Part shown: piece after piece, positions 5,784 through 21,656 of the stretch
Numbering within the stretch: position 1 is the stretch's first letter
Layout of the letters: each line of letters starts with the position of its first letter
Source of the DNA: Bacteroidales bacterium
Lineage (GTDB): Bacteria > Bacteroidota > Bacteroidia > Bacteroidales > WCHB1-69
Length of the DNA stretch: 64,000 nt
Assembly (NCBI GenBank): GCA_045116675.1
Contig: JBGUMF010000048.1
Coordinates: forward strand, 3,751 to 67,750
Direction: 5' to 3'
Notes under the pieces: model-generated
Told to the model about the DNA's origin: nothing
Database searches by the model: none
What the model saw: the letters and a program-made list of their open reading frames with translations, nothing else
Made by a program: the position numbers and the translations under genes

Positions 5784-8700
5784 TCACCCCGCCGTGCGGT
5801 CGATGACGCGGATGCCGCTGCGTGTGGGATCGAGGCGGCGCACCTCCACATGCACGGGTATGCGGTCGCGCAACTCCCGCACATGGCTGATCACCCCAAC
5901 GCGTTTGCCCTTCTGTGCCTGCAATCGTTCCAAGAGCGTCATCACCGTGTTCAACTCGTTCTCACTCAGGGTGCCGAAGCCCTCGTCGATGAAGAGCGTG
6001 TCGATGGAGAGCCCCTGCCGGTTCATGGAGGCGAGGGCCAGCGCTAACGCCAGCGAGACGATGAAGCTCTCGCCTCCGCTGAGCGTGTCCACCGGACTGA
6101 CCATGTCGGGCTGGTACTGGTCACGCAGGCTGATGGTCAGCGTGCCGGGGATGCACTCCAGCTTGTAACGCTTGTCCAAATCGTGCAGATAGAGGTTGGC
6201 ACTTCGCAATAGATTTTCTAACAGATAGCTTTGTGCGATGAGGCGGAATCTCATCCCGTCGGAGCCGCCGAAACTTTCGTTGAGGGTGTTCCACTTCTGC
6301 GCTGTGGCCTCTAATTGTGCTACCTTCTTCAAAAGTTCCTTTTGCCGCTCGCGTTCCGCTGCATCATGCTTCAGCTGGTTCTCTAATGTCGTGATTTTCT
6401 TGGATATATCTTCCAAGGTCTTCAATCCCATATCCAGCGCTTGGCGAAGGCTTTCTACCGTGTCCGATTCCTCAAAGGGTGGATGCTCTGACTCGTGGTG
6501 GCGGTTGTACGCTTCCGTGCGGGTTTCCACGGCGCCTTGTGCACGCGTCAGCGCCTCACGCCGTATGCGGCATGTCTGCCGCAAATCCTCGATATTGGCA
6601 TATCCCCGAAGTTCTATTAGGCGCTCTTCCTGGATGGCAGGATGCTGTCTATAAAACTGTTGCAGATTTTCTTCCAATCGGTTAATCTCCTCCTCCGCAC
6701 TCCTCTTTGCCTCGAACAGCTTGCCGGCATTGACGGCAAACGAGCTCCACAAATCGTCCAGTTTTTCTGTGATTAGAGCCCCTGCTGGCTCGTCTTCCGT
6801 TGTCCATGTCGTCCAAAGTTTAAGGACTTGGTCGCACGAATGGTTCATGTTCTTCAGCGAGGTCTCTGCCTGCTGAATGCGGATGCCCAGTTTTCTATGT
6901 TCCTCTTGCAACTGCCGATAAGCTTCCGCCTTGTTTTTAAGATTTGCGACAAATCCGGCCGCGTCCTGCTCCCACTGTTCTTGCCATCCGGGAATGGTCA
7001 TATATTCGGAAACCTCTTGTAGGTTTTTGGAAATCTGTGTATTACGGTTTTTAATTTGCTGTTTGCGGTTTTCCAGATTTTGTGTCTGCTCTCGCAGAAG
7101 ATTAGCTGCTTTTTGTGTTTCCTGCTGTGCCGTGCCCAATTCTTTTTGCAGTTTGGTCTCCATGTCTTTGAAGGAGGAAATGGTTTTCTGCTGGTTGTCC
7201 ACCTTTTTCTGGCGCTCATCCAGTTTTTCCCGCTCTTCCTGCAGCGTCACCCCCACCGTCTCTATTTCCGTCTTCAGCCGCTCGATTATATCTTCCGACA
7301 GTTCCGGTACCTCCACGGCAATCTTACGGCAGCAGTCGCGCACCTTCGCATGAGCGGCCGTCACCTCAGTGGTAGCGGTCGCCTCCTCGCGCTTGAGCTT
7401 TTCTAAGGCGGTCTGACATTCCCTTAGGATGCTTTCCGAGGCTTTTATTTCGGATTGTTTCTCTATCAAGGCTGCCTTTTTTGCATCCAGATCCGCTTGT
7501 AAAGGGTCCAGTATTTGGCGGGCCGCCTCATCCGACAGAAGATTGTGGATCACTTGGCCGCACACGGGACACACGTCGCCCGTTTTCAGCTGTGCCCGAA
7601 TGGCCTGCACCTGGTCGCCGATGGCCAGTTCCGCCGTCCGTACCGCTTCCTGTGATTGCTCGTAGGCGGTTTTGCGTTCGGCTTCCAACGGCTTGGCCGC
7701 TTCCAGTTTCTTCGTCTCGATCTGTCGGGTATTCTCCTTGTCGGCTATGTTATCTCGGATGGTTTGCGCCTTTTGGAGGGCACTTTCCAGACGGCTGGTC
7801 TCCACAAGTGCCGCGTTGAGGTTGGTCTGTTTTTGTTCCACGTTTTGGCGGTCGGTGGCTAGGGCATCCGGGTTCAATGCTACCAAGGCCTGCTCGGCCT
7901 GCTGCACAGCATTATGCTGTTGTGCTGTCGATTTTTCCAGATTCTTCTCCGCTTTTTCGCGGTCGAGAAGCTCCTGTTTCAAGGCGGGTTGCAAATCCTG
8001 CAAACGCTTACATTCGTTATCGTCGTTTTGATTTTCAGTTTGATAACGAACCACCTCGTCCAACTTGGCGGTAATGGTCTGGTATTGGGCGTACATGGGT
8101 TCATGTTCCGCTTCGCTCTCTATTTGTTTGCGTTTTTCCTCACAATCCTGTTGCTCTTTCTGGAGTGTTTCAGCAAAGAGTGTTTTCGAGCGTGCCAGTT
8201 GTGCGAACTGCTTGCGGGCATTGGGCTCCTTTTCCGTCAGAATCCGCTGCATCCGCTCTTTTTGTTGGCGCAAGGTGTCATAATCGGCCCGTGCCGTTGC
8301 CGAGAGGTCGAAGTCGGCCACCCGCTGTTCGTCGGCTTTGAACTGGGGGGCTTCCACCTGTTCGCGGCAGATTGCTAACTGATGTTCAGCCGCCTGTTTG
8401 GCGGCCAAGGTCTCCTTCTCTTTTTCCATCCATCGGAATTTCGCCTCTATGGTCTGCTGTTGTAGCTTTGTTTTATCTTTCTTTGCAGTAGTCAGTTCCA
8501 GATCTTGTAGTACAGCTTCACGTTCGTCTTTTTCCATCAGGTTGATCGCATCTGCTTTGGCCTTTTCGTCCCGGTAGGTCCGTTCCGCTTCCCCACACAT
8601 TTTGAAGATAGTCTGCCCGATGATGCTGTACTGTTCCGTACGTGTCATCTTCTCCAGGATTTTGGACTTGTCATCTTCCGAACTCTTCAGGAATTGGGTG

Positions 8701-16152: not shown

Positions 16153-16310
16153 CAAAAATGCCAGTGTTGAACGGAATCCCTCTTAATTTTTTTTTCTTTT
16201 CCCTTTTATTGATTTCGTTAGACAATCATTCGTTATACATCCGTGGATGTAACACTATGATGCAAGAATCGCAAATGGTTGCAGTAGGTTGAAAAATTTT
16301 TTTCGATGAA

Positions 16311-16365
16311 TGATTTGGCCGCAAACAATGTCGTTCAGTTCACGAGCCAAGGCTGATTTGTGGAC
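16311..16365 (-). pseudogene. relic of a HEPN gene 3' end
   Basis: About 80 percent identical by eye to 19717-19770 of the intact HEPN gene. The minus-frame translation KSALARELNDIVCGQII compares with KSALARELNETVCGQII. No start and no upstream half. Confidence 0.55.
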
Positions 16366-16390
16366 ATTCTCCCATTCTTATTTTGATTAC

Positions 16391-16423
16391 AAAAAACAGC
16401 GACTTACTTTCGTAAATCGCTGT
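16391..16423 (-). terminator. hairpin plus T-run after tRNA-fragment copy A
   Basis: acagcgactta/taaatcgctgt stem, homologous to the hairpin behind the intact tRNA at 20320-20350. Confidence 0.5.
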
Positions 16424-16430
16424 CGTTTTT

Positions 16431-16459
16431 TGAGCGACAGACGGGGTTCGAACCCGCGA
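16431..16459 (-). repeat. tRNA 3'-end fragment, copy A (att-like direct repeat)
   Basis: tgagcgacagacggggttcgaacccgcga is the T-arm plus 3' acceptor strand only. Identical to copy B. Shares the 21-nt block agacggggttcgaacccgcga with the intact tRNA-Gly. Confidence 0.85.
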
Positions 16460-16464
16460 TTTTA

Positions 16465-16481
16465 GGGATAGAACGGAGAAA
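16465..16481. repeat. degenerate inverted copy of the GGGACA arm motif
   Basis: gggatagaacggagaaa compares with the reverse complement of the arm motif, gggacagaaacgggacaaa. Confidence 0.5.
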
Positions 16482-16491
16482 TTCCGTAAAG

Positions 16492-17994
16492 CTAAACGCC
16501 TTTGTAAGGCGTTCTCAAATGTTGGCCACGGAGTTCGTCCAGCTTTTCCTGGTTAAAGGTGCCGTTCTCCCACATTTGGTCAATTTCTTGTTGTGCCTTT
16601 TCGGCATACATAGTTGTGTCTTCAGTTTCGTCGTACAGATTGGAGATTGTAAATAGCGGCAGTATTTTCACATGCCGTAACGCGCCATTGTCTTTTTTGT
16701 CGCAATGCTCCAATTCGGCAAAATTCTCCAGAGAGCATCGGACAGCTTCGGTCAGATGTTTCTGTCGCATAAACTCATACAGACTTTTCATCTTACCGCT
16801 CATTCCAGCCTTACATTCGATAGGTAGCACTTTCATGTCGCGGGCTATGATGTAATCCACCTCTGAACGCGTTCCTTCGGCGGTGTTCTCCCAATAGTAT
16901 AGCTCATGTTGGGAACGAGGGTTGTTGTATTTTATGAGTTCCCAGCCTAACACCATCTCGGTCAGGCCGCCTTTGTTTACCAAATCTTCGGTAGTGCCGG
17001 CCAGAATCATATCGGTCAACTGTCGCGCACCACCCAAATCCAAGTCGAGAATGCGCAGCAACAGTCCGCTGTCAAGATATAGATATTTGCGATATTTTTC
17101 ATTGACCTCCGCCCCGAGCGGCAATCCGTTGCCCGCCGTGTGGCTCACCCGCTTGATGATACCTGCATCGCACAGGAGCTTCAATGCCTTTTTCACCTCT
17201 TCGGCACGATAGCCTCCCTCCACATGACTGTAGGTAAACTTCTCTCCAATCTGTATTACGACACTTTGCAGTGTGTTGCGAAGCAGAGTAGGATCGACCT
17301 TTTTAGCGTATTTTGGGAAATCATCGTAGTAGGTAAGTTGTATGTCATCAAGTTCGGTCTGGCATTGGCGGTAGTCGTGGGTTGAAACCCAGGCGGCCAC
17401 GCTGGCGGGCATGCCGCCTACCATCAGGAAGGTGCGGAAGTGTTGCACAAGTTCGTTGTGCATAGCCGTAAGCAGCGGATTCTCTGTGTTTGCATCCTTC
17501 TTGGCTTTCACCCAGGCCGATTTCCCTTCCGCCACCAAAAACTCGTCGAACGAGAAAGGATAGACGAATAGCGAGCGTATGCGTCCCACCCCAAACGATG
17601 GCAACTCTTTGAGAGTGAACTCCAGTAATGAGCCTGCTGCCACCACGTGAAGTTCCGGAAAATCTTCCTTGAATGACCAGAGACTCTTAATGGCATCGGC
17701 AGAAGCCTGTATCTCATCCAGGAAAAGCAAAGTTTTCCCAGGAATCACCGGAGTGCTATATAGCATGCTCAGGTTATTGGCCAAGTCATGTATATCATGG
17801 ATTTTCTGAAAAACCTCCAACATGTCGGGTCGTTTTTCAAAGTTGACTTCAATGAAGTAATCGAACGTTTCACCCAAATGTTTTACTGCTGACGATTTAC
17901 CAACTTGGCGTGCCCCTCTTAGCAAAAGTGGTTTGAGCCGTTTGCTATTCTTCCATTCCAGGAGCAAAGAGTCGATAGGTCTTTCTATATACAT
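16492..17994 (-). CDS. AAA+ ATPase fused to a DUF4143-type PD-(D/E)xK nuclease-like domain
   Basis: Walker A GARQVGKSS, Walker B LLFLDEIQ, and a C-terminal EVDYII...VLPIECKAG restriction-endonuclease-like motif (COG1373-type architecture). An extra acidic tail of about 45 aa follows. Confidence 0.85.
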   Translation of the reverse strand: MYIERPIDSLLLEWKNSKRLKPLLLRGARQVGKSSAVKHLGETFDYFIEVNFEKRPDMLEVFQKIHDIHDLANNLSMLYSTPVIPGKTLLFLDEIQASADAIKSLWSFKEDFPELHVVAAGSLLEFTLKELPSFGVGRIRSLFVYPFSFDEFLVAEGKSAWVKAKKDANTENPLLTAMHNELVQHFRTFLMVGGMPASVAAWVSTHDYRQCQTELDDIQLTYYDDFPKYAKKVDPTLLRNTLQSVVIQIGEKFTYSHVEGGYRAEEVKKALKLLCDAGIIKRVSHTAGNGLPLGAEVNEKYRKYLYLDSGLLLRILDLDLGGARQLTDMILAGTTEDLVNKGGLTEMVLGWELIKYNNPRSQHELYYWENTAEGTRSEVDYIIARDMKVLPIECKAGMSGKMKSLYEFMRQKHLTEAVRCSLENFAELEHCDKKDNGALRHVKILPLFTISNLYDETEDTTMYAEKAQQEIDQMWENGTFNQEKLDELRGQHLRTPYKGV

Positions 17995-18024
17995 TTCTAT
18001 TTTTATCGTTGATGATTACGCCGG

Positions 18025-18032
18025 CAAAAATA
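18025..18032 (-). promoter_or_regulatory. -7 box
   Basis: Reverse strand TATTTTTG, 31 nt upstream of the start at 17994. Confidence 0.45.
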
Positions 18033-18041
18033 ATAAATTTC

Positions 18042-18125
18042 GATAAAACCGAGATGAATAAACGCAAGTTTTTTGATAAAACCGAGACGAATAATGATTC
18101 GATTTTTGATAAAACCGAGACGAAT
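18042..18125. repeat. three 18-nt direct repeats at an exact 33-nt period
   Basis: gataaaaccgaga(t/c)gaat at 18042, 18075 and 18108, immediately upstream of the ATPase promoter. Confidence 0.85.
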
Positions 18126-18195
18126 CTTTATTAATAAACTTTAATACGCTGAATTTCAAATATCTACAATCAAGATATTCCTGTATAAAATCTCA

Positions 18196-18220
18196 TTTCG
18201 TCCCGTTTCTGTCCCGATTT
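18196..18220. repeat. GGGACA arm motif, copy 1
   Basis: tttcgtcccgtttctgtcccgattt, near-identical to 20287-20311. Confidence 0.8.
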
Positions 18221-18259
18221 TAAAACAAAAATCAGTAGCTTACATCGGTAAGTTACTGA
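18221..18259 (-). terminator. hairpin plus T-rich tract after tRNA-fragment copy B
   Basis: 12-bp stem tcagtagcttac/gtaagttactga (one G-T pair), then tttttgtttta on the minus strand. Confidence 0.5.
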
Positions 18260-18281
18260 CACTGATTTGATTACAAGACTT

Positions 18282-18310
18282 TGAGCGACAGACGGGGTTC
18301 GAACCCGCGA
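18282..18310 (-). repeat. tRNA 3'-end fragment, copy B (att-like direct repeat)
   Basis: tgagcgacagacggggttcgaacccgcga, identical to copy A. No 5' acceptor strand, D-arm or anticodon arm upstream. Confidence 0.85.
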
Positions 18311-18314
18311 TTCT

Positions 18315-18337
18315 CGGACACTGCCCCCTTGGACAAA
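18315..18337. repeat. inverted GGACA half-sites flanking copy B
   Basis: cggacactgcccccttggacaaa. Two GGACA half-sites in the opposite orientation to the arm motif, with a longer spacer. Confidence 0.45.
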
Positions 18338-18402
18338 TTCTTTTTATCAACTTGCTGAATGTTAATAATTTGAGAATTACACTTTTGGTCATTTTTGCAT
18401 TG

Positions 18403-18426
18403 TTTTGTCCCGATTCTGTCCCGAAA
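18403..18426. repeat. GGGACA arm motif, internal copy
   Basis: ttttgtcccgattctgtcccgaaa, followed by two small hairpins (18445-18470 and 18474-18507) but no tRNA-like core. Confidence 0.7.
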
Positions 18427-18557
18427 CAAAACAATAAAAATAACTGATTTTCAATCAATTATCAGTATTTTTGATGCACCCTTTACGATAGGGGAAAAGC
18501 GGTGCATTTTTTTGTTGTTTCTCAAAGAACGCAAAATTTTGTAGCAAAAATTTGCGG

Positions 18558-18565
18558 CAAAAATA
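18558..18565 (-). promoter_or_regulatory. orphan -7 box facing the non-coding 18.3-18.55 kb stretch
   Basis: Reverse strand TATTTTTG. No credible ORF lies downstream. Confidence 0.3.
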
Positions 18566-18648
18566 TGCATTTTTTGGACTCCAAAAGCGTGTGTTCTAAC
18601 AAAAAAATGGATGACAAATATCGTACTGTGCCAGTATGAGAAAAAATG

Positions 18649-18656
18649 TATTTTTG
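18649..18656 (+). promoter_or_regulatory. -7 box
   Basis: TATTTTTG, 57 nt upstream of the ATG at 18713. Confidence 0.45.
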
Positions 18657-18712
18657 CGAGGTCATAGCTATTAGAGAGATAATATGACAAGAGAGAATAA
18701 TTATTATTACGT

Positions 18713-19339
18713 ATGCAAATTGAAGATTCACATCGCGACTATTACGATTATGCTTGTCCGCATTTGATTGACAAAGCCATAGTCTATCATCGGAACAGTC
18801 AGATTGTTTTGGGACAGGAACTCTTTTTCAACTCAAACCCTTTCCAGATCGATATGGACAAATGGTTCAATAAGTTTGATCATCAGTGGCATTGTCAAAC
18901 GTGGGAGTTTGGACTCTATGTCGGGTATGAATACTACAAATTTTTAGTTGGCAGATATTTCGAAAAAAGTCATCTCATTCTGGAATATTTGCAAGCTACG
19001 GAGTCAGAGCGTGAGAAAAATGAACGAGAATCTTTGAAACGGCCATCCAACGCTGCAATCGTATTGGTTTCAAAATACGGGATGTATAATGACCGTTTTG
19101 CCGGACGGGAATTGCGTTTCACCCGGGAGTATTGGCAAGTTGATCATGCTCTAATAGAAAACCCAATTTTAAAAGAGACATGGCTCACAAAGGTTCTTTC
19201 GCCCGAGAGCGTATGGACCAATGTCTATAACTATTTGGTGGCCACAAAAGATGAGCCCGTTCAGGACAGTCGCACAAACACAGAGAAAATTCTGTCAGCA
19301 GGCTTTGACACAAAGACCAGTTTCAGAAATGTGAAATAA
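18713..19339 (+). CDS. hypothetical protein, no recognisable domain
   Basis: 208-aa ORF with its own promoter box and protein-like composition (rich in W/Y/H/E). Visibly AT-rich codon usage. Convergent with HEPN-MNT. Confidence 0.6.
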   Translation: MQIEDSHRDYYDYACPHLIDKAIVYHRNSQIVLGQELFFNSNPFQIDMDKWFNKFDHQWHCQTWEFGLYVGYEYYKFLVGRYFEKSHLILEYLQATESEREKNERESLKRPSNAAIVLVSKYGMYNDRFAGRELRFTREYWQVDHALIENPILKETWLTKVLSPESVWTNVYNYLVATKDEPVQDSRTNTEKILSAGFDTKTSFRNVK

Positions 19340-19394
19340 AGAACAATGAATGCAAAAATAGGTCTGCAAAACGAAAAAAGTACCTATTCAAATA

Positions 19395-19691
19395 CTACAC
19401 GGCAACTCCCGTGCGCAGGACATCATCATACAAGGGTGAAGGATAGCGTTCCTCTAAAAGGACAGGTTCAATAAGTGTATTCAGTTTCCGGGAGGCTGTC
19501 CAAAGCTTTGTGGTGGCGGTCAACCAGTCGCCGTCCAGCAACGGCACCACAACGGCAATGTCAATGTCGCTGCCGTCATGTGCGCATCCCTTGCTGTAGG
19601 AACCGTACAAGAACACTTTCGGAGAGTTGAAAAGCCCCGAAATCTCTTCCTTGTATTGCTTGGCTAACATTAGAGCTTGTTCTCTATCCAT
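19395..19691 (-). CDS. minimal nucleotidyltransferase (MNT) of a HEPN-MNT pair
   Basis: LYGSYSKGCAHDGSDIDIAVV (GS...DxD). An alternative start at 19670 overlaps the HEPN stop (TAATG). Confidence 0.85.
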   Translation of the reverse strand: MDREQALMLAKQYKEEISGLFNSPKVFLYGSYSKGCAHDGSDIDIAVVVPLLDGDWLTATTKLWTASRKLNTLIEPVLLEERYPSPLYDDVLRTGVAV

Positions 19692-20071
19692 TGTTTCAGA
19701 TTCTTTGTTCGTTCAATAATTTGGCCGCAAACGGTCTCATTCAGTTCGCGAGCCAGAGCTGACTTATAAGAGGGGTATCTTGCCTCAATGTTCATAGGCA
19801 TCATCATATCAAGGAACAACCGTTGCTCTTCTGTCATCTCTTCCAAAATACCAGAATTCTCCGCCAATCTGACCAAGTTGTGGACGTAAGGCGGGTCAAT
19901 CTCTTGTGAGGAGCACCAGTAAGCCTTGAGGGTTTTCTCCAACACTTGATGGCACATGAAACCCACGTACAACCACCGTTTGGTGGAGTACATTGCCTCA
20001 GCCGTGACAACGTCATAGTCGGCCAGTTCCATCCAGTATGATATTTTTTCCTCTCTTGTCATAATATTCAT
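19670..20071 (-). CDS. HEPN domain protein of a HEPN-MNT pair
   Basis: 133-aa helical protein (CHQVLEKTLKAYW...VHNLVRLAE...EARYP), directly upstream of and overlapping the MNT gene, which is the usual arrangement. Confidence 0.8.
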   Translation of the reverse strand: MNIMTREEKISYWMELADYDVVTAEAMYSTKRWLYVGFMCHQVLEKTLKAYWCSSQEIDPPYVHNLVRLAENSGILEEMTEEQRLFLDMMMPMNIEARYPSYKSALARELNETVCGQIIERTKNLKQWIENKL

Positions 20072-20088
20072 GAATAGAATATCAACGG

Positions 20089-20096
20089 CAAAAATA
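20089..20096 (-). promoter_or_regulatory. -7 box
   Basis: Reverse strand TATTTTTG, 18 nt upstream of the start at 20071. Confidence 0.4.
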
Positions 20097-20286
20097 CATT
20101 TTTTTGTTTACATATACGTAGAGACACAAAATTTTGCGTCACTACAGATGATTCGCGTGTCCTTGTACCCGTTAGGATGCCTTAATCGGTCCTCGAACCA
20201 ATGTGTCTGCGGTTCGAAAACAATAATTTTGTAACATATTGAAGTTCAACATCTTATGTTTCAATAGGAAACAGTATAAAACCTCA

Positions 20287-20311
20287 TTTTGTCCCGTTTC
20301 TGTCCCGATTT
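20287..20311. repeat. GGGACA arm motif, copy 2
   Basis: ttttgtcccgtttctgtcccgattt. The flank ..gtataaaa(c/t)ctcattt.. is also shared with the copy at 18181-18195. Confidence 0.8.
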
Positions 20312-20312
20312 G

Positions 20313-20350
20313 CAAAAAAAACAGCGATTTTACGGCTGTAAATCGCTGTT
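20313..20350 (-). terminator. Rho-independent terminator of tRNA-Gly
   Basis: 11-bp stem aacagcgattt/aaatcgctgtt, followed on the minus strand by a T-run (the A-run at 20314-20319). Confidence 0.7.
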
Positions 20351-20363
20351 TTTCAGTGTTTTG

Positions 20364-20436
20364 AGCGGTAGACGGGGTTCGAACCCGCGACCTGCGGCTT
20401 GGGAAGCCGCCGCTCTGCCAACTGAGCTACTACCGC
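20364..20436 (-). tRNA. tRNA-Gly (anticodon CCC)
   Basis: Hand-folded cloverleaf. Acceptor GCGGTAG/CTACCGC, D-arm GCTC-AGTTGGCA-GAGC, anticodon arm GCGGC-TTCCCAA-GCCGC, 5-nt variable loop, T-arm GCGGG-TTCGAAC-CCCGT, discriminator T. CCA is not encoded. Confidence 0.9.
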
Positions 20437-20558: not shown

Positions 20559-21656
20559 TTATACATTGAATCGAATATGCAGAATGTCACCGTCCTGCAC
20601 TTCGTAATTCTTCCCCTCTACATATAGTTTGCCGGCCTCTTTGCATTTGAGCTCGGAGCCGAGCGTTTTCAAATCCTCGTATTTGATGACCTCGGCGCGG
20701 ATGAAGCCGCGTTCCAGGTCGCTGTGTATGACGCCTGCGGCCTGCGGCGCCAGCATGCCTCGTCGGATGGTCCAGGCGCGGTTCTCCTTTCCACCCACCG
20801 TGAAGAAGGAGATGAGGTCCAGCATCTTGTATGCCGCGCGTATCACCTTGTTCACGCCCGGTTCGGTAAGCCCCACGTCCTCAAGGAACGCCTTGCGGTC
20901 CTCTTCACTGTCCAACTCGGCGATTTCCGATTCTATCTTAGCGGCTATCACCAGCATCTCGCCACCATTCTCCTCCACATATTTCTTCACCGCCTCCGAA
21001 TAGGTGTTGCCGTTGACAGCATCGTCGTCATTCACATTGCACACGAAAAGCACCGGTTTTTCCGTCAGCAGCATCATATCGGCCACCACGGCGTGCTCGT
21101 CGTCCGTCACCTCCAAGGTGCGCACATTCTGGAAACCCTCCAGATGCTCCTTGTATTTTTTCAGCACCTCATAATCGTGTTTGGCAGTCTTGTCGCCGAT
21201 TTTGGCGGCTTTTTCCACTTTGGCAATCTTCCGCTCAACCTGTTCCAAGTCCTTGCACTGCAGCTCAAAATCCACAATCTCGATATCGCGGACGGGATCT
21301 ACGGAGCCTTCCTCGTGGGGGAGGGCCGGGTTGTCGAAGCAGCGCAGCACGTGGATCAGCGCGTCGCAGAGGCGCACGTCGGCCAGGAAGCTGTTGCCGA
21401 TGCCGGCACCCTGGCTGGCACCTTTTGCCAAACCGGGGATGTCCACCAGGTCCAAGTTGGCAAACACCAACTTGTCAGCCTTGATGAAGGTGTTGATGTG
21501 GGTCAAGCGGTCATCGGGCACCGCGCAAACCCCGATGTTGGATTTGTTGGTGCTGTAGGCAAACTCGGTCACGGCAGCCTTGGTGTTCGATATGCAATTG
21601 AACATCGTTGTCTTACCGGAGTTCGTCAGTCCCACTATGCCGCATTTGAGTCCCAT
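20559..21656 (-). CDS. ychF: redox-regulated ATPase YchF
   Basis: MGLKCGIVGLTNSGKTT P-loop, DIPGLAKGAS, and a C-terminal TGS-like end GDILHIRFNV. Confidence 0.95.
   Translation of the reverse strand: MGLKCGIVGLTNSGKTTMFNCISNTKAAVTEFAYSTNKSNIGVCAVPDDRLTHINTFIKADKLVFANLDLVDIPGLAKGASQGAGIGNSFLADVRLCDALIHVLRCFDNPALPHEEGSVDPVRDIEIVDFELQCKDLEQVERKIAKVEKAAKIGDKTAKHDYEVLKKYKEHLEGFQNVRTLEVTDDEHAVVADMMLLTEKPVLFVCNVNDDDAVNGNTYSEAVKKYVEENGGEMLVIAAKIESEIAELDSEEDRKAFLEDVGLTEPGVNKVIRAAYKMLDLISFFTVGGKENRAWTIRRGMLAPQAAGVIHSDLERGFIRAEVIKYEDLKTLGSELKCKEAGKLYVEGKNYEVQDGDILHIRFNV

Follow-up and report, generated by a model that had tools for sequence, protein, structure and literature searches.

Units that are flanked by attachment (att) sites and have no recombination genes are known from Streptococcus thermophilus as cis-mobilisable elements (CIMEs), which are stacked next to the target site of a related autonomous element, as for the integrative and conjugative elements (ICEs) ICESt1/ICESt3. 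For tRNA-associated prophages, the order of tRNA 3' end, P' sites and co-directional integrase gene (int) has been described in many cases, and KplE1 has an attL that overlaps the int promoter, its int gene being repressed by Int (PMC2951348). In Prochlorococcus, the tyrosine recombinases of tycheposons target tRNAs, newcomers push older elements outward, and in the resulting islands partial tRNAs are found together with degenerate elements and with defence or cargo genes (bioRxiv 10.1101/2020.12.28.424599). In Bacteroidota, experiments with int and attP of the Riemerella phage RAP44 have shown integration into a tRNA 3' end through a 19-bp core, arm sites not being described (PMC9745183), and the paper on Porphyromonas gingivalis phages reports insertion at tRNA-Ser and tRNA-Pro and does not mention arm sites. 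Here we analyse a stretch of 64,000 nt (hereafter the window) from a Bacteroidales genome (GCA_045116675.1, contig JBGUMF010000048.1, positions 3,751 to 67,750), in which two small gene cassettes lie behind tRNA-Gly(CCC), together with copies of an 18-nt motif, the twin GGGACA repeat. The locus is a tandem pile-up of integrase-less, att-flanked units and an older relic, which is a known kind of arrangement. The motif in turn very probably represents the arm-type (P, P') sites of a family of tyrosine integrases in Bacteroidota phages that target tRNA 3' ends, as judged from position and conservation. In a limited literature search we found no description of this motif or of its breadth.

The twin repeat and the tRNA fragments in the window

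The 18-mer GTCCCG(T/A)TTCTGTCCCGA occurs on the plus strand at 18200-18217, 18407-18424 and 20291-20308, where only 0.05 matches are expected in the window by chance, and no further match with up to three mismatches is found on either of its strands. The three direct copies, first noticed in an earlier note on this DNA, are thus exact, non-random and specific. Read on the strand of the tRNA, the motif is TCGGGACAGAA(A/T)CGGGACAAAA, in other words a twin direct repeat of two 11-bp units, CGGGACAGAAA and CGGGACAAAA(T), set one helical turn apart. The tRNA-like cores seen near the motif are real as well. The complete tRNA-Gly(CCC) gene lies at 20363-20436 on the minus strand (ARAGORN; Rfam tRNA, 70.1 bits), flanked by ychF (20559-21656), and its 3' part at about 20363-20391 is the attL core (core repeat family D1). 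Direct copies of its last 29-38 nt or so, comprising the T-arm and the 3' strand of the acceptor stem, are located at 18280-18317 and 16429-16466, and a stretch of 21 nt is identical across the three cores, with 0 expected by chance. The core-to-core spacings of 2080 nt (cassette 1) and 1851 nt (cassette 2) define units bounded by direct core repeats. The motif is unrelated to the tRNA sequence and is located outside the core, either 54-65 nt after it (P') or 95-101 nt before it (P).

On the tRNA strand the order within cassette 1 is core, hairpin, motif, cargo, hairpins, motif, 95-nt spacer and core; all features given with coordinates in this paragraph are on the minus strand. In this cassette, the tRNA is followed by the terminator hairpin of P' arm 1 (20317-20353; inverted repeat I8, 14/14; -18.2 kcal/mol, z -4.5) and then, 54 nt from the tRNA end, by the P'-arm site TCGGGACAGAAACGGGAC (20291-20308). 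At the other end of this cassette, two conserved P-arm hairpins (18439-18507; fold -22 kcal/mol, z -3.5) precede the P-arm site TCGGGACAGAATCGGGAC of its attR (18407-18424) and an AT-rich spacer of 95 nt with a conserved TAAC..TCA box (18312-18406; alignment A2), which leads to core fragment 2 (18283-18311), a tRNA-Gly 3' end of allele CTGTCGC that cassette 1 has as its attR and cassette 2 as its attL-like end. Next comes the terminator hairpin of P' arm 2 (18231-18260; -13 kcal/mol), which is also found after the live tRNA in the related genome G063, and the P'-arm site of cassette 2 (18200-18217) is 65 nt from core fragment 2. The earlier note had placed two motif copies at about 60 nt from a core with common flanks, which is borne out by the distances of 54 and 65 nt and by a shared block of 48 nt with 90% identity (D5). 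Cassette 2 closes with core fragment 3 (16432-16460), where about 30 nt remain of the P arm and the P motif is missing; cassette 1 keeps both arm sites and cassette 2 keeps the P' site only. Beyond this end lie terminator hairpin 3 (16395-16424; inverted repeats I1 and I7; -19.5 kcal/mol, z -5.8), which resembles hairpin 1, a relic of 62 nt from the 3' end of a HEPN gene of an older element (16298-16359; D3, 81% identity to 19704-19765; homologous arrangement in G035), and an extracytoplasmic function (ECF) sigma factor gene. At the place expected for a P' motif after hairpin 3, the string TCAAAATAAGAATGGGAGA (16368-16386) has 11/19 matches and thus 8 mismatches, a fit equalled at about 190 places on this strand of the window, and to take it as an eroded fourth motif is a weak possibility.

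The earlier note had proposed a different geometry, namely that motif copies in inverted orientation bound each cassette, with degenerate inverted sites beside the cores. The arrangement is direct instead, since both motifs of cassette 1 have the same orientation, as have all well-conserved copies relative to the tRNA in about 80 loci. As for the degenerate sites, the copy at 16464-16483 (given as 16465-16481 on the plus strand) has 8/20 mismatches, and 60 window positions on that strand are as good or better, so that it is indistinguishable from chance; the copy at 18315-18337, which falls inside the P-arm spacer, has at least 12/20 mismatches in an ungapped comparison. A string GTGTCCGAG beside the core is indeed common to the window, G070 and G028, and could speak for such sites. 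Against it, the inverted candidates score at background and are not conserved in the homologous P arms of relatives, where conservation among seven aligned arms is lowest in the 25 nt adjoining the core; the P-arm stubs of G022 and G032 read GGCCGAGCCCTAA at the position homologous to 16465-16481. We therefore regard inverted terminal sites, as they bound transposons, as very unlikely. The same note suggested that the copy at 18403, with hairpins and no core, may mark an empty or eroded unit. The hairpins are there, while a core was overlooked, as fragment 18283-18311 lies 95 nt away on the side opposite the hairpins. In G061, G022, G018, G021 and other loci, hairpins, motif and core recur in this way with a spacer of 95-101 nt. 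This recurring layout rules out an eroded unit, and the copy is the P-arm site of attR in cassette 1.

The same layout in relatives and in free phage DNA

In the relatives, which we denote by our genome (G), contig (C) and locus (L) numbers, the motif is shown to occur in two contexts. In the P' context it stands after a tRNA or core fragment and its hairpin, and in the P context it stands after two hairpins and a T-rich tract, with a core fragment following at 95-101 nt. The window copy at 18407-18424 is of the P type, and its surroundings align with those in G061, with the attR of G022 and with elements having Ser-GCU, Ser-UGA and Ser-CGA cores. In alignment A2, which covers seven P arms from elements with Gly, Ser-GCU, Ser-UGA and Ser-CGA cores, no variation is seen in the hairpin CTGATAAnTGATTGAAAATCAG, the motif or the TAAC..TCA box. 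The box, TAAC(A/T)(A/T)TCA, is found about 45 nt after the motif (window 18350-18375; A2 columns ~160-175), where a bending protein or a recombination directionality factor (RDF) might bind.

The ends of intact prophages agree with this layout. Prophages with int at tRNA-Gly(CCC) are present in G018, G022, G024 and G027, and none is present in the own genome of the window. The two ends of the G022 prophage are found on two contigs, the attL with tRNA-Gly, hairpin, motif and int, and the attR with P motif, 101 nt, core and an unrelated flank, while in G066 the tRNA-Gly is followed by a different terminator and no motif, which makes it an empty site. It follows that the module of hairpin plus motif is borne by the element. 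For the prophage on contig C34 of G026, no second core is found within 30 kb downstream, where the contig ends. An unintegrated attP in one piece is seen in the IMG/VR viral contig L171, in which no tRNA gene is detected; here the motifs at 7886 and 8058 stand on either side of a core fragment, in the order P motif, about 105 nt, tRNA-Ser-like 3' fragment, hairpin, P' motif, about 60 nt and int. Published phages show related layouts. In the P. gingivalis phage016a (L202, BK068097.1, 49424-49563), a hairpin is followed by GCGGGACAGATACGGGACAG about 60 nt upstream of int, and in the Riemerella phage RAP44 (L203, NC_019490.1, 45180-45400) the repeat AAAGTGCACAAAT is found about 95 nt upstream of the core and about 65 nt downstream of it, after a hairpin.

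Occurrence of the motif in the genome, the genus and all species

In its own assembly of 2.49 Mb, the motif is present in three exact copies and one copy with two mismatches, and all four are located beside a tRNA or a tRNA 3' fragment. The fourth copy is found on contig C72, where tRNA-Ser(CGA), a hairpin and CCGGGACAGTATCGGGAC are followed, about 55 nt on, by a tyrosine integrase gene; the integrase of this element (C72:42603-43896) has 372 amino acids (aa) and is about 30% identical to the tRNA-Gly-type integrases. A generic transcription-factor site or a repetitive extragenic palindromic (REP)-like element, which the earlier note had named as what a motif common in unrelated contexts would be, is not what four copies in 2.49 Mb, all at tRNA 3' ends, look like. 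Within the same genus, 23 of 36 genomes have between 1 and 5 copies of the motif, and no hits are obtained with the reversed control pattern. In the loci read, a complete tRNA, wherever it adjoins, is followed on its own strand by a hairpin with U-tract and then by the motif, and the tRNAs concerned include Gly-CCC, Gly-GCC, Ser-GCU, Ser-UGA, Ser-CGA and His-GUG.

We then report a wider survey by an exact-match scan of one genome per species, covering 185,579 species and 596 Gb. Overall it yields 90 stretches, against about 35 hits expected by chance from our own arithmetic. Of the 66 copies in Bacteroidota, 54 are placed as the layout predicts relative to a tRNA, tmRNA or T-arm fragment on the same strand. 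A complete tRNA or tmRNA is found no more than 200 nt before 41 of them, and a T-arm fragment comes before 7 and after 6. Outside Bacteroidota there are 17 copies, with two near a tRNA feature, and these fit the chance expectation. The taxa having the motif include rumen Bacteroidales metagenome-assembled genomes (MAGs), Muribaculaceae, Mediterranea and one Flavobacteriales MAG. Over the genome and its relatives, the motif is found beside tRNA 3' ends and tyrosine integrase genes, and the suggestion of the earlier note that such sites would be recombinase-binding arm sites tied to tRNA-like cores is well supported by the comparison.

That the motif stands nearly always after the terminator hairpin of a tRNA, and behind many different tRNAs, might also be expected if it belonged to the host's own tRNA loci, for instance as a REP-like repeat or as a signal in processing, termination or regulation, and had nothing to do with mobile DNA. 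Among the 45 complete tRNA genes of the own genome, however, the exact motif is found at 1, and the variant with two mismatches at a second one (tRNA-Ser(CGA), C72). Moreover, neither the empty tRNA-Gly site of G066 nor the host side of the G022 attR has the motif, P arms have it ahead of tRNA fragments, a free viral contig contains it, and it travels with integrase genes. A host-owned signal is therefore extremely unlikely to explain it.

A few further occurrences are worth recording. In a Muribaculaceae MAG (L048) and an HGW-Bacteroidetes-7 MAG (L071) the motif follows the 3' end of a tmRNA-like sequence (ssrA, as judged by eye), with an integrase gene after it in L048, and the integrase family may also target ssrA, if these sequences are read correctly. 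In a Planctomycetota MAG (L072) the 18-mer is found 94 nt after tRNA-Gln and directly before an integrase-like open reading frame (ORF). Dense arrays of GGGACAG/CTGTCCC repeats are present in high-GC viral contigs (L168-L170) and in Planctomycetota contigs (L045, L047, L107). These occurrences may be related to the sites in Bacteroidota or convergent with them.

The integrase next to the motif

In five loci (L015, L017, L018, L025 and L031) an ORF of about 400 aa begins 42-65 nt after the motif, and it is identified as a tyrosine integrase (Pfam Phage_integrase, E 5.7e-21, and SAM_5; phrog_1, E 1e-33). Since tail-fibre genes follow int, these loci are prophages. The reverse test within the genus gives the same association. 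Seventeen integrases reach 58% identity or more to the query, and for 16 of these the motif or a variant precedes the ATG by 42-65 nt, a tRNA being located 125-148 nt upstream of the start codon. The site variants come as paired half-sites, namely CGGGAC/CGGGAC, TGAGAC/CGAGAC, TGAGAC/TGAGAC and CGGAAC/CGGAAC, and that the half-sites change together is expected if one protein module reads each half. In the AlphaFold2 model of the L111 integrase, built from an alignment of 49 sequences (mean predicted local distance difference test score, pLDDT, 83.9), a three-stranded sheet (residues 19-27, 30-38 and 45-51) and a helix (62-81) are predicted at the N-terminus with pLDDT 85-91, before the SAM-like and catalytic domains. 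Its best match in the Protein Data Bank (PDB) by Foldseek on the whole chain is the full-length lambda Int (1z1b_A, E 1.6e-10, 382 aligned columns), and a truncated lambda Int (residues 75-356) aligns over 292-305 columns only. The integrase is thus predicted, purely from the model, to have an arm-binding N-terminal domain like that of lambda Int. As to its relatives elsewhere, the IMG/VR search with the integrase gives one locus with 55% identity, and among GenBank phages only relatives of 25-34% identity are found.

Instead of the integrase, the twin repeat might serve an Xis-like RDF or a phage transcription regulator, and its role would then be to control how int is expressed or in which direction recombination runs. 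Direct repeats in tandem, one helical turn apart, are also typical of Xis sites, yet lambda has its Xis sites in one arm only, whereas the motif is found on both sides of the core at similar distances. The P' copy is located 42-65 nt upstream of the int start, where the int promoter is expected, but the P copy is behind two terminator-like hairpins and away from gene starts. A small gene of 104-108 aa with no assigned function stands beside the P arm in intact prophages, though its 108-aa protein has no PHROG match. In favour of this rival, IntS and the RDF TorI of KplE1 both bind attL over the int promoter (PMC2951348); against it, the extra predicted N-terminal domain of the present integrase needs a target. 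Overall, we consider an RDF or regulator site improbable.

Several points nevertheless weigh against assigning the motif to the arm sites of this integrase family. The support is positional and comparative throughout, and the protein that binds there could be an RDF/Xis or a phage regulator. In G032, G070 and G028, single cassettes combine GGGACA in one of their arms (P' or P) with GAGACA in the other. The residues RKRIKL (with GGGACA) and RKKIRL (with GAGACA) of the integrase are linked to the site form with 2 exceptions in 16, and this link is confounded by relatedness. No Pfam arm-binding family is matched in the N-terminal 100 residues of the integrase, even at E up to 10, and the assignment of the arm domain comes from the predicted structure and the whole-chain Foldseek match. 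Finally, the own genome has no close tRNA-Gly-type integrase, its best matches being about 30% identical (C72 and C76), and the arm sites in the window are therefore orphans at present. A search of the own genome with the integrase by tblastn gives matches on these two contigs only and none on the contig of the window; the homologue on C76 has no recognisable motif. As a separate matter, a strict code from integrase residues to site variants was considered, and the exceptions and mixed arms speak against it.

Cargo, history and decay of the cassettes

Our survey of the window by ORFs and Pfam finds no recombinase genes inside the two units. The cargo of cassette 1 comprises a HEPN gene (19670-20071, minus strand; Pfam HEPN, E 1.4e-18), an MNT-type nucleotidyltransferase gene (19395-19691, minus; Pfam NTP_transf_2; PADLOC PDC-S09) and ORF208, a phage-related gene in the opposite direction (18713-19339, plus; C-terminus against phrog_4243, E 5.9e-9). 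Between the P' site and these genes there is a left-end extension of about 105 nt (20186-20290, minus), with 77-95% identity in at least seven genomes. Cassette 2 holds an ATPase gene with AAA_14 and DUF4143 domains, a candidate defence gene (16492-17994, minus; Pfam; PADLOC PDC-S01, E 1.5e-130). Upstream of its promoter are three direct repeats of 33 nt with a GATAAAACCGAGACGA core (18036-18136, minus; families D2 and D4), also present in G031 and G063, and these are part of cassette 2 and not an att site. Diverged ATPase homologues (L005/L030 and L013) have their own, different triple repeats at the same place, and this suggests that the repeats may be an operator or iteron co-evolving with the ATPase. 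An integron (attC/IntI/attI) was also considered for such a row of units, and it is rejected, as the boundaries are tRNA fragments with duplex arm sites and the window has no integrase gene.

The relatives allow the history of the locus to be read in part. In G063, ychF is 92% identical to that of the window, and the tRNA-Gly, of allele GCGATAG/CTGTCGC, is followed by the hairpin, the motif and the ATPase of cassette 2 (95% identity), which is therefore the state before the arrival of cassette 1. The displaced fragments in the window have CTGTCGC while the live tRNA has GCGGTAG/CTACCGC, a pattern that fits an incoming element supplying a new tRNA 3' end, and we infer that a single compensating change at acceptor position 4 would be needed. 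Three acceptor alleles of tRNA-Gly(CCC) are seen in the genus (GCGGTAG/CTACCGC, GCGGTAG/TTACCGC and GCGATAG/CTGTCGC; L128, L132, L133), and the allele of the displaced fragments is live in the sister species G061, G063 and G066. Element-supplied 3' ends may thus drive change in the acceptor stem.

Identity between species points to transfer. Cassette 1 is 97% identical to a locus in G021 over 1670 nt (L056; G021:C35, 71-1740 against window 18641-20309), and the 5' part of cassette 2 is 95.8% identical to that in G031, with ychF at 82% and 84%, respectively. The cassettes, or larger elements once carrying them, therefore move between species, because their identity exceeds that of ychF. The same flanks, ychF and the ECF sigma factor gene, enclose in G061 a single integrase-less cassette of 2626 bp with both arm sites, and its cargo is a PIN-like gene and a gene for a membrane protein of 414 aa. 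In total, integrase-less cassettes with both arms are known from five species with five different cargos (2080, 2626, 2355, 2792 and 2155 bp), and the left-end extension of about 105 nt is found in integrase-less cassettes only, being absent from the integrase-bearing prophage loci sampled. In addition, the last 115 nt or so of the ATPase gene with its terminator (16491-16606) are found again, 80-92% identical, in other cassettes that lack the ATPase (L128, L135, L130 and L029), which indicates that the cassettes are mosaics of recombining modules.

These observations lead us to suggest, tentatively and as somewhat less probable than its negation, that the cassettes are excised and re-inserted in trans by the GGGACA-type integrase of a helper phage, as exchangeable arrays of defence and toxin-antitoxin genes behind tRNA-Gly in rumen Bacteroidales. 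It is supported by the narrow size range of 2080-2792 bp with five cargos in five species, by the confinement of the 105-nt extension to integrase-less units, by the 97% identity of cassette 1 in G021 against 82% for ychF, and by the exact pre-insertion state in G063. Decay by deletion tells against it, being common at these sites. Stubs of int and of the tape-measure gene are found in relatives, and in L026 and L027 the int stub is fused to the tape-measure stub. In G021 the HEPN-MNT-ORF208 block abuts a tape-measure stub and not a P arm, and homologues of ORF208 stand beside tape-measure stubs in both G021 and G003. Cassette 1 is itself a mosaic, with its junction at 18605-18641.

Proposed mechanism and implications

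From the layout in the window, the prophages and the free attP, a mechanism may be proposed. The twin repeat CGGGACAGAAA-CGGGACAAAA, with its 11-bp spacing, would be the arm site for the N-terminal domain of heterobivalent, lambda-like tyrosine integrases, and these integrases belong to temperate phages and related islands of Bacteroidota. The attP of these elements is built in the order of two hairpins, the P-arm twin site, an AT-rich spacer of about 95 nt, the core of about 29 last nt of a tRNA, a terminator hairpin and the P'-arm twin site, with int lying 42-65 nt past the P' site in intact elements. Integration at the T-arm and acceptor region would rebuild the tRNA with the 3' end and terminator of the element (attL) and push the old tRNA tail outward (attR), and repeated integration would stack the elements. 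The geometry, the specificity for tRNA ends, the association with integrase genes, the free attP and the horizontal spread of the cassettes are observed here. We infer that Int itself binds the motif, that the four half-sites, two in P and two in P', may serve an Int tetramer, and that the P' site may also repress int, as in KplE1.

The twin motif YGRGACAGAAWYGRGAC together with the layout of P site, about 95 nt, tRNA tail, hairpin and P' site is a simple signature for the ends of temperate phages and islands in Bacteroidota. It is present in rumen Bacteroidales, Muribaculaceae, a Flavobacteriales MAG and published P. gingivalis prophages, groups in which prophage borders are otherwise hard to call in fragmented metagenome assemblies. 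The arms with the core, about 300 bp in all, point to the minimal DNA that a vector would need for integration into those gut and rumen Bacteroidales that are poorly tractable. Small att-flanked units are also a form in which candidate defence and toxin-antitoxin genes pass from one species to another. Should mobilisation in trans be true, this would be a phage-dependent cassette system, with integron-like gene shuffling derived from phage attP arms.

Comparison with known systems

Among the described systems, KplE1 with its IntS and the lambda type have, as here, non-core repeats in both arms of attP and an integrase with a separate N-terminal domain, which for the present family is predicted, and KplE1 shares as well the single direction of tRNA 3' end, P' sites and int. 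Compared with KplE1 and lambda, the family described here differs in the sequence YGRGACAGAAWYGRGAC, in the simple set of 2+2 half-sites, in the terminator hairpin between core and P' site, and in its Bacteroidota hosts. RAP44 is similar in having a distant integrase homologue (about 25% identity) and the order of flanking direct repeat, spacer of about 95 nt, core, hairpin, repeat and int, while its arm repeat, unlike the twin motif of the window, is AAAGTGCACAAAT with one copy per arm.

The stacking of att-flanked, recombinase-less units at a target site is shared with CIMEs and with decayed tRNA-linked islands; in contrast to CIMEs, the partner here is a phage and not an ICE, and the units are very small (1.9-2.8 kb). 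Tycheposon islands have in common with the locus the targeting of tRNAs, the outward displacement, the partial tRNAs and the defence or cargo genes, but the integrase family and the phylum are different here, no arm motif is defined for tycheposons, and the autonomous partners in the present case are tailed prophages. Integron arrays resemble the locus as a row of small cargo units, with or without promoters, at one site and without an internal recombinase. The locus is distinguished from them by the absence of attC-type folded single-strand sites and of IntI, and by its boundaries, which are tRNA 3' fragments with lambda-type arms, each unit having its own promoter and terminator.

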